Assembly: GCA_965218425.1 (NCBI GenBank)
Contig: OZ244621.1
Location: 480,001 to 544,000, forward strand
Source of the DNA: an uncultured Candidatus Binatia bacterium
Lineage (GTDB): Bacteria > Desulfobacterota > Binatia > UBA9968 > CAXXLF01
Reading direction: 5' to 3'
Length of the DNA stretch: 64,000 nt
Shown: piece by piece, positions 26,960 through 37,482 of the stretch
Layout: each line of letters begins with the position of its first letter
Numbering within the stretch: the stretch's first letter is position 1
Translations under genes and position numbers: made by a program
The notes under the pieces: model-generated
The model's database searches: none
What the model saw: only the letters and a program-made list of their open reading frames with translations
Told to the model about the DNA's origin: nothing

Positions 26960-29419
26960 TTACTCATTTTCCTCATTTTTGTTTTCACTTCGGCGTTCCG
27001 AAACTGTGGACTGTTTTAATTTCTTAGAGTATTCTTCCAGCCGCTTTTCCACAAGTCCATTGATGGAGGTTGGAGGATAATGACCCTCACTATCCCTCTC
27101 ACCGGCGGGCGTACCGGTTAGAACTTCGATGCCCTCGTCGATGGTACTGACGGCAAAGATGTGAAAATTCCCTTGTTCAACGGCCTCCACCACATCAGGG
27201 CGCAGCATCAGATTTCTTAAATTGGAGCGGGGTACCACAACACCCTGAACCCCGGTCATTCCTTTGAGGCGGCAGATATCAAAAAAACCCTCTATCTTAC
27301 GGTTGATACTTCCGATGGCCTGGATGTCACCATTTTGATTCACCGAACCGGTGATGGCGATACCCTGTTTGATTGGGACCCCGGAGAGACTGGAAAGAAT
27401 GGCGTAGAGTTCAGTGGATGAAGCGCTGTCACCGTCTATCCCCTCATAGGACTGTTCGAAACAGAGACTTATGGACAGAGAAAGAGGCCGGTCCTGTGCG
27501 TACTTGAAACCAAGGTAGCCGCTCAGTATAAGAACCCCTTTGTCATGAGTCTTCCCGCTTAGTTTGGTCTCTCTCTCAATATTAATAATCCCTCCGCGGC
27601 CCAGGAAGGTCTTACAGGTTATCCGAGAAGGCTTACCAAAGCTAAAGCCTCCCATCTGATAGATGGCCAATCCATTGAGCTGCCCCACCACGGCTCCTTG
27701 AACATCCACTAGGATAGTTCCCTCGGCAATCATTTCTTGCAGCTTCTCCTCTATGAGGTTGAACCGAAAGGTCTTTTCATCCAATGCCTTTTCCACATGT
27801 TTACTCTTGACCAAGTCACTCCCGTCCTTCTTTGCCCAATAGTCAGACTCCACGAGGACATCCAAAATATCGCTAAAACGGGTCGAGAGCTTTTCCTGGT
27901 CTTCCACCAATCTCGCCCCATACTCAACGATTGCCGATACCCCGCCGGAATCGAAGTGACGGAGCCCTTCCCTCTGACAACAACCGCTAATGAAACAGGC
28001 ATAGGAAACGATACTATTGTTGGACTTATCGATTTGATAGTCAAAATCAGCCTTCACCTTGAAGGTTTCCCGGAAATCGGAGTCTGCAGTTGAGAGGTAC
28101 TGATACAGATGAGGGTCCCCGATCATAATTACTTTTGTGTCAGTTGGAATGGGCTCGGGTCTCAGACCCTGGGGAGGCATCCAGCCGAACTGGGAAGCCG
28201 GCTCTTCGATTCGATGTTCTTGATTCTTGATCACCCGCTTTAGGGACTCCCATACCCCCGGATTGGACAACACATCTCGATCGTAGAGAACTAAATAGCC
28301 TGCATTGGCACGATTGATGGAACCCGCCTTTACCTGAGTAAAGTCAGTGGTAAATCCCCCAAGGACCTGACGCTTCTCCACCACGCCGAACACGTTATGG
28401 TAGGTGGGATTGGTTTCAATGATGATTGGTGGTCCCTGGGTATCGCTGTTGTCCACAAAGACATTGACTCGGTAAGGTAGGAACGGATCGCTGGGATTTT
28501 CCGGAGGCTGAAGAAGGGCCAGTGGCCCCGTCCCGTCGGTGGCCTCGGTCTCTTTAAAATTTGCTAGGTTGCCTAGAATGTCGTCTTTCACTGCGTCAAG
28601 ATATTTATTCACCTTGGGATAATCCTCGTACTTGTCTTTGAGCTCCGACAACGGAATGCGTACCAGGTATTCTCCGGCTTGCCTGTCCAACGCACCTAGC
28701 TTTTCGGCGATTTCCCGTTCCAGCTTCTTTCCCTCACGTTGCGCCTGATCCACTCTCTTGCCGATCTCGTTTTGTTTCTCTTCCAATGCTTTTTCCTCTT
28801 CCACCGGTAGAGTCAGGTACTCGTCCTCCTGCATGGGCTTGCCGTCTTTTCGGAGCGGTATCATGACTATTCCTGCCGGAGAGAATCTAATGGCAAAACC
28901 GCCCTTTCGCCCCTCTTCCATTACGCCTTCCATGATTGCCTGATGGCGCTTTTGCATGTCCTCCACCAAGGTTTGTCGCTGGCGGGCATATTCTTCGCTC
29001 TCAAAAGTCGCCTTCACCTCCTTTTGAAGCGATTGCACGAATTCTTCCATATCTCTTTTGAGGATTTTCCCCCCGCCTCGCCGCACGTTCAATGCCAGCG
29101 GTCGGTCGGGGTCAGCGAAGTTATAAACGTAGCACCAGTCTTCGGGAACGGAAGAATCCTCCTCCGGATGAACCATTTCTGCGGTAACCTTTTTCAGAAA
29201 GGCTTTGATGATAGTGGTCTTCCCTGTACCGGTTAGTCCATTAACGTAAATGTTAAACCCCGGTTTGTTGACCCCTAAACCAAACTCAATGGCACGCATG
29301 GCTCTTTCCTGCCCGATGAAATCGGCCAGGGGAATCATGTCCGAGGTACAATCAAACGGGATTAGTGATGAGGCACATTTCCACCGGAGTCGATCCGGTG
29401 AAACCTCATAGGTTGCCAT
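26960..29419 (-). CDS. Lon-type protease (LonB/LonC-like, AAA plus S16 domain)
   Basis: GLTGTGKT, GSINRANAGYL, DGDSASS catalytic Ser, INRKIEGF Lys. Confidence 0.92.
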   Translation of the reverse strand: MATYEVSPDRLRWKCASSLIPFDCTSDMIPLADFIGQERAMRAIEFGLGVNKPGFNIYVNGLTGTGKTTIIKAFLKKVTAEMVHPEEDSSVPEDWCYVYNFADPDRPLALNVRRGGGKILKRDMEEFVQSLQKEVKATFESEEYARQRQTLVEDMQKRHQAIMEGVMEEGRKGGFAIRFSPAGIVMIPLRKDGKPMQEDEYLTLPVEEEKALEEKQNEIGKRVDQAQREGKKLEREIAEKLGALDRQAGEYLVRIPLSELKDKYEDYPKVNKYLDAVKDDILGNLANFKETEATDGTGPLALLQPPENPSDPFLPYRVNVFVDNSDTQGPPIIIETNPTYHNVFGVVEKRQVLGGFTTDFTQVKAGSINRANAGYLVLYDRDVLSNPGVWESLKRVIKNQEHRIEEPASQFGWMPPQGLRPEPIPTDTKVIMIGDPHLYQYLSTADSDFRETFKVKADFDYQIDKSNNSIVSYACFISGCCQREGLRHFDSGGVSAIVEYGARLVEDQEKLSTRFSDILDVLVESDYWAKKDGSDLVKSKHVEKALDEKTFRFNLIEEKLQEMIAEGTILVDVQGAVVGQLNGLAIYQMGGFSFGKPSRITCKTFLGRGGIINIERETKLSGKTHDKGVLILSGYLGFKYAQDRPLSLSISLCFEQSYEGIDGDSASSTELYAILSSLSGVPIKQGIAITGSVNQNGDIQAIGSINRKIEGFFDICRLKGMTGVQGVVVPRSNLRNLMLRPDVVEAVEQGNFHIFAVSTIDEGIEVLTGTPAGERDSEGHYPPTSINGLVEKRLEEYSKKLKQSTVSERRSENKNEENE

Positions 29420-29896: not shown

Positions 29897-30124
29897 TTAC
29901 TTCGTTGGCTTTAGAGCGATGACATACTTCTGAAAGCAAGCCACCGCATCCCCTAGCATTGCCGGCATAAGCCTTTTCTCCGGCTCAAGGAGGGTATTCC
30001 TCCGCTGGGTTTCCAGGTACTGATCTGTCAAAAGAGTGTCCGGTTGGAAGAGGGACGATATCCTATCATCCACGCTGCTAGAACCGGACTTTGTTGTCAT
30101 TGAATTTCTAATCACAATATTCAC
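29897..30124 (-). pseudogene. Probably truncated hypothetical protein (LFQPDTLL...EPEKRLM...DAVACFQKY)
   Basis: Resembles the N-terminal half of a hypothetical family I recall from deltaproteobacterial-like genomes; ends early. Not verified by search. Confidence 0.45.
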
Positions 30125-30142
30125 CTACCCTCTTACCGATTA

Positions 30143-30159
30143 CGCAAGGGGTATGCCAG
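30143..30159 (-). promoter_or_regulatory. Sigma-54 -24/-12 promoter candidate
   Basis: CTGGCATACCCCTTGCG (GG-N10-GC) just upstream of the 30124 ORF. Confidence 0.55.
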
Positions 30160-30313
30160 TGTTTTATCCTGATAATCTGGAACAGTTCAGCCAGAATTCT
30201 TCCAAAATTTGGTAGCCCGACAACATGAAAGTCTCAAAACAAGGAAGTGAACATGGGTAGAGCGTTATTATATTGGCGGCGGGAGGAATCAAAAGGCAAG
30301 GAAATGACCGGCC

Positions 30314-30718
30314 CTAGAACTTCGCCATCAGTTTCTTTACCTTTAATTCGATAAGGTCGCGTACGGAGCGAAAATCATTGGGTTCCATATTTTTCGGGTC
30401 CGGGATGTCCCAATCCTCCCGTTCCTTGGTGCGCACGAACGGGCACTCGTCTCCGCACCCCATGGTGGCCACGAAATCGAATTCAACGTCCGGAATTTCC
30501 GAGAGCGTCTTGGAGAAATGGCGACTGAGGTCGTAGCCCAACTCATTCATGGATCTTATGGCCTTGGGATTGATCTTCCCGGATGGGCGGGAGCCTGCGC
30601 TGTAGGCTTCCACCCTACCCGTCCCGTGCATACGCGCAAAGGCCTCGGCCATCTGGCTGCGATTGGAGTTTTCTATACAGACAAAAAGAACCTTTTTCAC
30701 TTTTTTCGATTCCTCCAT
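30314..30718 (-). CDS. arsC: Arsenate reductase, LMW-PTP fold
   Basis: VCIENSNRSQMAE, SAGS, MGCGDECP, WDIPDP. Confidence 0.9.
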   Translation of the reverse strand: MEESKKVKKVLFVCIENSNRSQMAEAFARMHGTGRVEAYSAGSRPSGKINPKAIRSMNELGYDLSRHFSKTLSEIPDVEFDFVATMGCGDECPFVRTKEREDWDIPDPKNMEPNDFRSVRDLIELKVKKLMAKF

Positions 30719-30754
30719 CCACCATAGAATCAGCTGGATTGGCTAAAAAGTGCT

Positions 30755-30909
30755 CTAAATAGTTTTGCTCAAAAGCCTCACCGGCAGAGCATTCTCGTCT
30801 TCGGCTACATTACGATCCGTGAAAGGAACCTTATTATGGAAAGAAACTCTTTCACCACGTTACAGGAAGCTCAGCCAGTCGCCGTATATACCGTAACTTC
30901 TTTTTCCAT
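30755..30909 (-). pseudogene. Glutaredoxin/NrdH-like UxxC selenoprotein remnant
   Basis: MEKEVTVYTATG-TGA-ASCNVVKEFLS; after a 1-nt shift HNKVPFTDRNVAEDENAL; the C-terminal half appears deleted. TGA at 30871-30873. Confidence 0.75.
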
Positions 30910-30955
30910 CACTAGCTTCTGATTTTATACTCCAGCAGAGCAATATCCAAAATAA

Positions 30956-31162
30956 TCAGGCCTCTTTCCTGCTTTTTGACCATCCATATAACGCCAGAAC
31001 CAAAAAGGCCGCCAGTACGGGGAACAGAACGAAATCAAGATATGGGTTAAGCGCTGCCAGTCCGAGCAGGCTTAGCCCAAAAACGAGAATCGGTGTGAAG
31101 CAACAAACTGCCGCAATGATCGAACCCCAAAGACCTGTCTTGAAACACTTACTTGCATCCAT
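30956..31162 (-). CDS. merF: Mercury transport protein MerF
   Basis: GSIIAAVCCFTPILV...YLDFVLFP two-helix signature. Confidence 0.9.
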   Translation of the reverse strand: MDASKCFKTGLWGSIIAAVCCFTPILVFGLSLLGLAALNPYLDFVLFPVLAAFLVLALYGWSKSRKEA

Positions 31163-31226
31163 GACACATTCTCGCTGGTTAATTGCCGTTGGCAGAGCAC
31201 CTCGCGATCAGATGTGTGTCAGAAGA

Positions 31227-31547
31227 TCAAAAATTTCCATGAACGTAAAAAACCCAAGTCATCGTTAAAGCAGTGGAAACCCACAGGGCGATGGTCGTCA
31301 TCCACCGTGCCCTTTTCCGAATCCCGCCCCAATAAATATAATGGGACCGAGCGACCAGGACAACGGCCAATAGAAAGAACACGCCCCGAAACGGCGCAAA
31401 CCAATCACGAAACGCCGCCAGACCGGCGGCTAGGCTAGTGCCTCCGCCCAACAGGGCGTAGGCCAGCGCTGCGATTCATCACCAACTCCCAGCAAGTGCG
31501 CTCAACACAGAACCTATTGACGCTCTAGTCGGAGATTTTCCTTCCAT
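31227..31547 (-). CDS. MerT-like mercury transporter, predicted tandem Sec23-Sec24 (106 aa)
   Basis: MEGKSPTRASIGSVLSALAGSW-TGA-TGA-IAALAYALLGGG...FAPFRGVFFLLAVVL... parallels the MerT pattern ASACCxxPL...EPYRPIF. TGATGA at 31476-31481; adjacent to merF. Confidence 0.8.
31440..31463 (-). promoter_or_regulatory. Candidate SECIS hairpin of the MerT-like gene
   Basis: GCCUaCGCCC-UGUU-GGGCGgAGGC starting 13 nt after the second UGA; GU in the apical loop at +24/+25. Confidence 0.65.
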
Positions 31548-31634
31548 AACACCTGCCTTTCTCTAACCAATAATTTCTAAATGCCTTCTCGGCAATTTCA
31601 TTGTTGTAAAAAACTTCAAGACGCTCACTTTGTC

Positions 31635-32558
31635 CTACACCTTGCTTGGAATTTCTTTAGGTGGATGTGATCGGACGGACTCTTCCTCGCGCGTAAACAT
31701 CCGGGCCACCAGGACGAGGATCGGAATCAGATACATGTGACCGCTCACCCACATGATCCCCCCTCCCAGCGCCTGGTCATTGATGGGACTCAGGTCCATG
31801 AGCCGGGGCATCGCTTCGTAGAAAGGATAGAGGACCTTTTCCGGCAAGGAAATCACCATACCCAGCACCGTATTCTGAAGGGTGGCTGCCACAAGATACA
31901 TGATTCGAAACCCGTAGGGAATTTCACCGTGTAGTCTTGGCGCCGGGTTCACCACCGGCCACCAGAATACAAGGGAAGTGGAGAAAAACATAAGGTGTTC
32001 GACATCATGGGCCCACCCGCTGCGCAGGGCCAATTGGTAAAGGAAAGGATGATGCCACGCCCACAGGCTGACAACATAGACAGTCCAGGCCACGGGCAGT
32101 AGGGTCAGGGTCCAAAGCAGGCGGCGGAAGGGAGACACGGGATTTAACAAACGGCAAAATGGTTTTCGCCACTTCACTGGAAGGCCCCACAAAAAACCCG
32201 GCAACGGGTTGGCCAAAAGGAAAAACAAAGGCGCAATCATCAGCAACAGCAGATGTTGAACCATATGCATACTGAGATTTGACCCCGACAGTGCGTCGAT
32301 AGGAGATAATAGAGCTAAAATGAGCGCCCCTAAGCCAAGCCAATAAAGGGAGATCTGCCAATGGGATACGGCGCGAGATGTACGCCGCCGGAGCTTTAGC
32401 CAACCGCGGGTGTAGACTGCGGCAAAAAGAGCCAGGACAAAAAGAATATCCGGACGCCAATGCCAGTCTGCAGTGGGATTGGCCTCGGACGGGATATGAG
32501 CATGGCCATGCCCCCCGAAGACCAACAGGACAAGAATCGAAAGGATTAATGCAGTCAT
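31635..32558 (-). CDS. Cytochrome c oxidase assembly factor, caa3-type CtaG family
   Basis: LLSPID, HMVQHLLL, WAWHHP.LY, EHLMF, DQALGGGIMW; ATGA overlap with the upstream gene. Confidence 0.88.
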   Translation of the reverse strand: MTALILSILVLLVFGGHGHAHIPSEANPTADWHWRPDILFVLALFAAVYTRGWLKLRRRTSRAVSHWQISLYWLGLGALILALLSPIDALSGSNLSMHMVQHLLLLMIAPLFFLLANPLPGFLWGLPVKWRKPFCRLLNPVSPFRRLLWTLTLLPVAWTVYVVSLWAWHHPFLYQLALRSGWAHDVEHLMFFSTSLVFWWPVVNPAPRLHGEIPYGFRIMYLVAATLQNTVLGMVISLPEKVLYPFYEAMPRLMDLSPINDQALGGGIMWVSGHMYLIPILVLVARMFTREEESVRSHPPKEIPSKV

Positions 32559-32929
32559 CCTAGCGCCCATAGGGCGATGATCCATGCGGGTAAGAATGCA
32601 ACAACTCCAAGTAGCCAGAGGGTTGTTGAGCCGCCTCTATTATCCTTGGCCAAAAGGCGCCTGTTCAAAACATCGGTAAAGATCACCCCAAGTAGGGCAG
32701 CCGCCGAAGTGATAAGGACTGATCGGGGTAAAGGAGTGTCGATGACCTCGGCCGGCGTATTGCCCAGCAGGGACAAAACAGCCATCAGCCAGGCGGGAGC
32801 CAGAGCTGCTAACCCCAGGAGCCAGGCATACTCCACCACTTGGAAATTTCCCCTTCTGCTATGAAAAACAAGGGTACCCGCAGTGGCAATGACGCCGATG
32901 AACCCCACCACCACGGACAAATAAATCAT
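32555..32929 (-). CDS. Hypothetical membrane protein (about four TM helices)
   Basis: Hydrophobic ORF translationally coupled to the CtaG-like gene. Confidence 0.6.
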   Translation of the reverse strand: MIYLSVVVGFIGVIATAGTLVFHSRRGNFQVVEYAWLLGLAALAPAWLMAVLSLLGNTPAEVIDTPLPRSVLITSAAALLGVIFTDVLNRRLLAKDNRGGSTTLWLLGVVAFLPAWIIALWALG

Positions 32930-37065: not shown

Positions 37066-37482
37066 ATGAAGCTCCTCTGTTTTCAAGCCAAGCGATTTTG
37101 GTGGAAGACATACTCAAAAAGCCTTTCTCCGGTCCAGGATCAGGACATGGAAGAAGAGGTACAGGAGGGGCTGATCGTTTTTTTTCATGTTGAACCAGCG
37201 GATCAAGAAGAGTCAAGGAGAGGGTCGGTTCTTCGCCAGAGCTTAAAGCATATCAAGTGGTTGGCAAACAAGAGGAAGATTAAAAACATAGTGCTCCACT
37301 CGTTTGCCCATCTTGGCGGCAAGGACGCCTCGCCCCCGTTTGCTCAGGCATTAATCGACGAACTTGCCGAGCGACTGCGCGACACTGACTATCATGTGCA
37401 GATCACCCCATTTGGATACTTCTGCGAATGGGATCTCAGCGTTTACGGCGACAGCCTTGCCAAGGTATGGAAGGAAATTTGA
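37066..37482 (+). CDS. Stand-alone archaeal-type threonyl-tRNA synthetase editing domain protein
   Basis: VFFHVE, IVLHSFAHL, TPFGY, G.SLAKV.KEI match the archaeal ThrRS N-terminal editing domain pattern. Confidence 0.8.
   Translation: MKLLCFQAKRFWWKTYSKSLSPVQDQDMEEEVQEGLIVFFHVEPADQEESRRGSVLRQSLKHIKWLANKRKIKNIVLHSFAHLGGKDASPPFAQALIDELAERLRDTDYHVQITPFGYFCEWDLSVYGDSLAKVWKEI

Follow-up and report, generated by a model that had tools for sequence, protein, structure and literature searches.

In MerT proteins of the Tn501/Tn21 type (PF02411, NF010314), Cys24 and Cys25 of the first membrane helix accept Hg(II) from MerP and deliver it by way of a second, cytoplasmic pair, Cys76/Cys82, to MerA, as set out in the accessible part of PMC5715351. 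Short MerT proteins of the RC607 type, described by the 97-position model NF033560, also carry a pair in helix 1. Selenocysteine (Sec, U) has been described in this family one residue at a time: in a small CU group of MerT selenoproteins (accessible part of bioRxiv 10.1101/2022.07.06.499078), in a MerT entry with a C/SxxU motif (PMC13188914, Table 1), and in a further published family, the MerT/CopZ fusion NF045683. Two Sec residues separated by a few codons, for which a single hairpin probably suffices, occur in the UxxU metal-binding protein NF041115, which has a soluble HMA fold. In bacteria, Sec is inserted under the direction of a hairpin that sits at a fixed spacing from a single UGA; in the bacterial SECIS model (PMC13188914, section 5), an apical loop of 3-9 nt with a G in its first two positions lies 16-37 nt from the UGA on a stem of at least 4 pairs.

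The window analyzed here is a stretch of 64,000 nucleotides from an uncultured Candidatus Binatia bacterium (genome G000). It contains a MerT-like gene, called the UU gene below, that resembles published single-Sec MerT selenoproteins in having predicted Sec at the helix-1 Cys pair and a SECIS-like hairpin downstream within the coding sequence, and differs from them in that both residues are UGA-encoded and the product, of 106 aa, has no HMA fusion. An earlier reading of the sequence, the original prediction, had remarked that Sec-containing MerT-like proteins were already predicted and that an adjacent pair is very unusual. Single-Sec (CU) forms are indeed published, and no UU motif appears among the 119 families in the 2026 table of PMC13188914. 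Our literature search, with supplements and subscription journals outside its scope, turned up no bacterial protein described as having adjacent Sec residues. A term search of the deep-Sep main text found no mention of MerT, and the accessible part of the Olavius paper reports no adjacent-Sec MerT. One-Sec MerT is already known; the adjacent Sec-Sec form predicted from these sequences would be new relative to the 2026 catalogue of prokaryotic selenoproteins. The UU family provides test cases, with three hairpin types, for one SECIS serving two codons, and could inform the engineering of proteins that carry vicinal selenocysteines. With CC, CU and UU all occurring at a single metal site of a single membrane fold, what selenium contributes to soft-metal binding and release becomes testable.

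Tandem in-frame UGA codons in a short membrane protein gene

The features of the gene are as follows.

31227..31547, minus strand: gene for a short MerT-like membrane protein, 106 aa, predicted Sec23-Sec24 (translation; NF033560 at E 7e-10, below cut-off; helices and hydropathy)
31476..31481, minus strand: in-frame TGA-TGA, codons 23-24, at the MerT first-helix Cys-Cys columns (translation; alignment; read contigs)
31548..31562, minus strand: purine-rich stretch ahead of the ATG, a likely ribosome-binding site by its sequence
31429..31472, minus strand: single SECIS-like hairpin (folding; criteria from PMC13188914, section 5)

The frame begins with ATG at 31547-31545, continues for 22 codons to TGA at 31481-31479 and TGA at 31478-31476, and then runs through 82 open codons to a TGA stop at 31229-31227. 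Translation confirms this layout, purine-rich upstream sequence included, as originally predicted, and places it on the minus strand; the plus-strand frame over 31227..31547 is closed. The 106-residue product has no Cys at all, again as predicted, and the TGA-TGA are the sole internal stops. Contigs from four of four sequencing runs, belonging to three studies, span the TGA-TGA and show no other letters there; the window sequence may itself derive from one of these runs. Because the letters are identical across these runs, assembly error is dismissed.

By hydropathy, the protein has three hydrophobic stretches, the second and third of them separated by a basic loop. Two AlphaFold models agree on the helices and place the Sec pair inside a helix spanning residues 7-34 or 8-45, at low confidence (pTM 0.37 and 0.36). 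Foldseek with the first model found no match at E 0.001 and, because of this and the low confidence of both models, our structural claim is limited to helicity. A PDB sequence search with the UU protein found no real match, BLASTP of the UU protein against the neighboring MerF gave no alignment, and a single-sequence protein search scored none of 301 candidates. At the locus itself, an Rfam scan returned nothing, and a promoter and terminator scan returned nothing usable.

Genome G000, a single contig 97% complete, has the full Sec machinery on which the prediction depended. Its selA, selB and selD score above their cut-offs, ARAGORN finds a tRNA-Sec(TCA), that is selC, and selD itself carries an in-frame TGA. 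TGA is otherwise an ordinary stop, terminating 159 of 449 ORFs of at least 500 aa, and the only tRNA-Trp found by ARAGORN is tRNA-Trp(CCA). A 96-nt call of tRNA-Gly(TCC) looks like an artefact. Elsewhere in this genome (L059, G000:C1:2282215-2283537:+), a PRK06370-family FAD oxidoreductase (NF004992, 770 bits, cut-off 629) has a TGA at the second cysteine of its redox center; this Sec form is absent from the 2026 selenoprotein table.

Relationship to MerT

Family searches of the UU protein, run with U read as C, match only mercury transporters, all below cut-offs. The short MerT model NF033560 scores best (E 7e-10, residues 9-102, 39.2 bits against a cut-off of 130), with Pfam MerT PF02411 at 15.7 bits (cut-off 32.9) and the MerT/CopZ fusion selenoprotein NF045683 at 12.6 bits (cut-off 375). 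The likeness to the RC607 type extends to similar length and a pair in helix 1; the differences are a score of 39 bits against 130, Sec-Sec in place of Cys-Cys, and MerA not found in the genome of the UU gene. The likeness to the Tn501/Tn21 type lies in residues 23-24 opposite Cys24-Cys25 (PMC5715351), in the MerP-type neighbor seen in relatives of the UU gene, and possibly in three membrane segments, as suggested by the three hydrophobic stretches. The UU protein differs in lacking the second, cytoplasmic pair, Cys76/Cys82, and no merA occurs in the neighborhood.

The family label of the original prediction therefore survives as MerT-like rather than MerT proper, the scores being far under the cut-off of every MerT model. 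The protein is filed as a MerT-like selenoprotein because it falls below the MerT cut-offs, lacks the second pair, and has no merA detected above cut-off in its genome. Placement of the TGAs at the MerT Cys pair is borne out by the model match and by a 69-sequence alignment, in which, with U read as C, the columns of C23 and C24 are among only four that are at least 90% invariant. The predicted Sec-Sec occupies the position of the vicinal thiol pair in the first membrane helix of MerT. The Hg-binding role ascribed to that pair would be one inherited from the family, since MerA was found neither here nor in eight of the nine other UU genomes.

UU, CU and CC forms across genomes

In-frame TGA-TGA occurs at the equivalent site in ten genomes: G000, G001, G004, G717, G673, G049, G009, G029, G775 and G080. 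The UU protein of G001, which is of the same genus as G000 and its closest relative, is 76% identical to the window protein and that of G004 is 70% identical, while those of G717, G673 and G049 are 21-30% identical. No UU gene among the ten has a further internal stop. Single-Sec forms occur in nine genes, seven CU, one RU and one AU, always with the UGA at the second position. The count of 19 Sec genes (10 UU and 9 single-Sec) leaves out one further match with one TGA, G029:C91. A survey of CC, CU, UC and UU homologs, proposed with the original prediction, thereby yields CC, CU and UU, and no UC among the 19 Sec genes. The last class-wide search found a family match in 53 of 401 genomes and the UU form in 8; a phylum search, the source of G080, found a family match in 27 of 401, and G004 came from a search of relatives. 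selA scores above cut-off in all nine other UU genomes and in all nine single-Sec genomes; among Cys-Cys genomes from the clade of G673 (n=2), one has selA and the other has none.

Cys-Cys homologs run continuously across the TGA site. Protein-database relatives P0005-P0007 and P0010, one of them from an Acidobacteriota genome, begin after it; because gene callers cut these genes, the UU family is largely invisible in protein databases. The original prediction had held two chance nonsense mutations at the two Cys codons to be unlikely and had called for homologs with TGA at this site. The pair is kept in nine other genomes, at the same aligned columns, and in the window gene these are the only internal stops. 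Because the same pair recurs in this way, the adjacent UGAs most likely encode two neighboring selenocysteines, a prediction we hold with high confidence.

Several flagged loci did not survive inspection. The single locus from a metagenome scan proved spurious when read, as did one of three from a genome-contig scan, the other two being the G001 and G004 genes. In the first phylum search, a second match marked with two TGAs (L016) was noise, as were L013 and L018. L074 is a MerF, L073 is an unrelated protein, and the two-TGA flag on G323 had counted the terminal stop.

Two of the single-Sec proteins, Arg-Sec in L038 (G674) and Ala-Sec in L050 (G045), have lost the first ligand and retained the Sec codon. 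In L041, L042, L048 and L051 (G776, G017, G053 and G025; two were scanned), a Cys-Sec MerT-like protein is fused to a CusF-like C-terminal domain, and this fusion in four CU relatives suggests Cu/Ag handling.

A single SECIS-like hairpin

The lowest-energy fold begins 3 nt past the second UGA. It has an upper stem of 5 bp (31458-31445), an apical loop of UGUU (31453-31450), and an energy of -24.2 kcal/mol. The loop lies 22 nt from the second UGA and 25 nt from the first, and the hairpin fits the bacterial SECIS model. Because both distances fall within 16-37 nt, one hairpin could serve both UGAs. In such a scheme, one SECIS would bring in SelB.Sec-tRNA on two occasions, once for the codon at the usual spacing and once for its upstream neighbor. 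Chen, Fang and Inouye reportedly found in 1993, with an E. coli fdhF reporter, that tandem UGAs are still decoded, at a reduced level.

The hairpin is only modestly stable against dinucleotide shuffles (z -1.95, 12 of 200 as good) and stands out more against synonymous recodings (z -2.9, 2 of 300 as good). The lowest-energy fold fits the SECIS model in 10 of 10 UU genes, at 17-27 nt, where the looseness of the model allows a chance fit of 0.25-0.44 per gene, as estimated from synonymous recodings of six UU genes. In an earlier set, 10 of 13 Sec genes fit the model and 3 failed, against 5 of 25 Cys-Cys genes that fit, with a Fisher p of 0.0013, too strong a value since related genes are not independent. 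The four UU genes with PSUU, which come from two families, have near-identical hairpins with a GGC loop at 17 nt. The SECIS-like hairpin originally noticed after the TGAs is accordingly a single hairpin that fits a loose model.

The single-Sec genes bear on a variant in which only the second UGA is read as Sec, the first being decoded by near-cognate tRNA-Trp or tRNA-Cys or acting mainly as a selenium-dependent brake on expression. All nine have Sec at the second position, which would make that position the best target of the hairpin, and in the RU and AU forms the first position has indeed lost its ligand. Yet TGG or TGY is one change away wherever Trp or Cys is wanted, and TGA is kept in 10 of 10 genes; both spacings, moreover, fit the SECIS model. 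We consider this variant very unlikely and retain the reading of two Sec residues.

Selection and evolutionary history

Downstream of the TGAs (codons 25-73), dN/dS in three pairs is 0.28, 0.17 and 0.10. These values indicate purifying selection where the original prediction would have been damaged by its relaxation. Upstream (codons 2-22), dN/dS is 0.35 for G000/G001, silent sites being saturated in the other two pairs. Changes specific to the G000 lineage number 5 silent and 7 replacement over 57 + 153 sites, too few to exclude recent relaxation.

These values, with the preceding results, bear on explanations that dispense with Sec at this site: a pseudogene, a sequencing error, general recoding of UGA, or a 22-codon leader followed by a separate 74-aa gene starting from TTG. 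Gene callers do start after the site, in P0005 as well, and the cluster in G000 is reduced relative to that in G001. Against this, the same letters occur in four runs, TGA is a normal stop in G000, none of the ten UU genes has another internal stop, Cys-Cys homologs are continuous across the site, and homology with dN/dS below 1 is found on both sides of the TGAs. These explanations are largely refuted, and we give them the least credence of any considered here.

The phylogeny comes from a quick tree and a 29-row tree, neither of which includes G009, G029, G775 or G080. In the 29-row tree, the clade that holds the G673 UU protein otherwise consists of CC, CU and RU proteins (support 100/98) and is separate from that of the window protein (99/95); the G717 and G049 proteins form long branches without firm placement. 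Forcing the G673 UU protein and the window clade together is rejected (p-AU 0.02), for a grouping picked after viewing the first tree. Because the G673 and window proteins lie in separate clades, UU was either gained more than once or lost many times; by these sequences it probably arose more than once, many losses being the alternative. Since Sec is always second in single-Sec genes, the simplest path would be CC to CU to UU. Cys-Cys would then have come first, giving way to Cys-Sec and later, more than once, to Sec-Sec.

Gene neighborhoods and the metal

Three neighbors in the window give the immediate context.

30956..31162, minus strand: merF, Cys-Cys form, 65 nt downstream of the UU gene (NF033565, 82 bits, cut-off 50)
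30314..30718, minus strand: ArsC/LMW-PTP-family gene, downstream context (PF01451 above cut-off; arsenate reductase models below)
31635..32585, minus strand: Caa3_CtaG-family gene, upstream context, found upstream in G001 too (profile matches)

The neighboring MerF does keep its CC, as the original prediction stated. It has the helix-1 Cys-Cys and one N-terminal Cys only, without a C-terminal cysteine pair. The G001 cluster runs arsR, UU gene, Cys-type merT, HMA gene with UxxU, merF, and CsoR-like repressor. Compared with L084 (G001), the window at 29900-31640 lacks three blocks: arsR; merT with the HMA gene; and csoR with about 7 kb before the ArsC-like gene. No MerP, second merT, matching arsR or csoR was found in G000, and its one HMA match lacks the Cys motif. 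What remains in G000 of the G001-type cluster is the UU gene and merF, both intact. A 153-aa gene of G001 is represented in the window by a truncated version, the 75-codon ORF at 29897-30124.

Eight of the nine relatives carry an HMA-type gene next to or close to the UU gene, and in seven its metal motif includes a TGA; only that of G001 was scanned by HMM, the rest being recognized by motif. The G001 gene, which adjoins the UU gene, scores 94 bits against NF041115 (UxxU_metal_bind, cut-off 95) and resembles that family in having two Sec codons a few codons apart; the adjacent codons of the UU gene contrast with its UxxU spacing, and the membrane protein with its soluble fold. Plain ORF calling misses these UxxU genes beside UU genes, at L006:3721-4035 (G001) and L052 about 2436-2790 (G673), and it also misses two in G717, at L049 about 1350-1715 and upstream of 4117 (minus). 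Metal-responsive regulators (ArsR/SmtB and MerR families) flank the G001, G673 and G717 clusters. None of the flanking MerR-family proteins reaches the MerR, CueR, ZntR or CadR-PbrR cut-off, so the regulators do not name the metal. We infer that Hg(II) is the single likeliest metal, with Cu(I), Ag(I) and Cd(II) as close rivals.

MerA scores above cut-off in one of the ten UU genomes, G775, on another contig. It was not found above cut-off in G000; most UU genomes are fragmentary (G004 is 81% complete), which bears on absence elsewhere. The six best MerA matches examined lack the C-terminal Cys pair. Since MerA is found in one UU genome of ten and the cytoplasmic Cys pair is missing from the UU protein, classical mercury reduction is unlikely. 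Mer-type transporters unaccompanied by MerA suggest that mercury, or another soft metal, takes a route that is still undescribed.

The neighborhood of G717 includes a MerB-like gene and a Sec-glutaredoxin-like gene, and a Sec-redoxin and a CcdA-like gene lie upstream in G004. In-frame TGAs in redoxin- or glutaredoxin-like genes next to Sec-type MerT-like genes are seen at L007:373-981 (G004), at L049 about 480-690, and upstream in L130 (G080) and L122 (G372).

Proposed role of the UU protein

Taken as a whole, the comparisons favor a predicted Sec-Sec protein of the inner membrane that binds and relays a soft metal, likely without mercuric reductase, and we regard this reading as probable. In relatives, a MerP/CopZ-type (HMA) protein, usually a selenoprotein too, would hand the metal to the selenolate pair of helix 1. 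With no cytoplasmic Cys pair in the UU protein, a partner would have to take the metal onward, and the neighboring Cys-type MerT or MerF could be one.

The same missing pair, together with MerA not found in 9 of 10 UU genomes and the great stability of Hg-Se bonds, would also suit a stoichiometric trap, in which a real Sec-Sec pair holds Hg or another soft metal in the membrane without handover. HMA chaperone-type genes and Cys-type MerT or MerF adjoin the UU gene, however, which suits a relay, and decoding of two UGAs would presumably yield few copies, a poor design for a sink. A trap therefore appears unlikely, if less so than the other departures from a relay. The redoxin genes raise a different use of the pair, as a vicinal diselenide or selenol pair that carries electrons from redoxin to redoxin across the membrane. 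Oxidoreductases make up the majority of selenoproteins (PMC13188914), and the Sec-redoxin and CcdA-like gene upstream in G004 and the Sec-glutaredoxin-like genes nearby in G717 and G080 would fit. But all family matches are to mercury transporters, and HMA-type genes neighbor the UU gene more often (8 of 9) than redoxin genes do (3 of 9); a redox role is decidedly improbable.

Extending the preferred soft-metal relay further is tentative. The Sec-Sec dipeptide may have evolved repeatedly, by CC to CU to UU and with one SECIS, within an all-selenium relay that runs from a UxxU/UxxC chaperone to the UU transporter without mercuric reductase. The fate of the metal would be an undescribed one, for example capture as metal selenide or delivery of a scarce metal. 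We offer this fuller scheme as a possibility that is somewhat more likely to be wrong than right.

Two further genes of the window lie apart from the cluster. A LonB/LonC-like AAA protease gene lies at 26960-29419, and 37066-37482 encodes a stand-alone archaeal-type threonyl-tRNA synthetase editing domain (PF08915, 127 bits), here in a bacterium.
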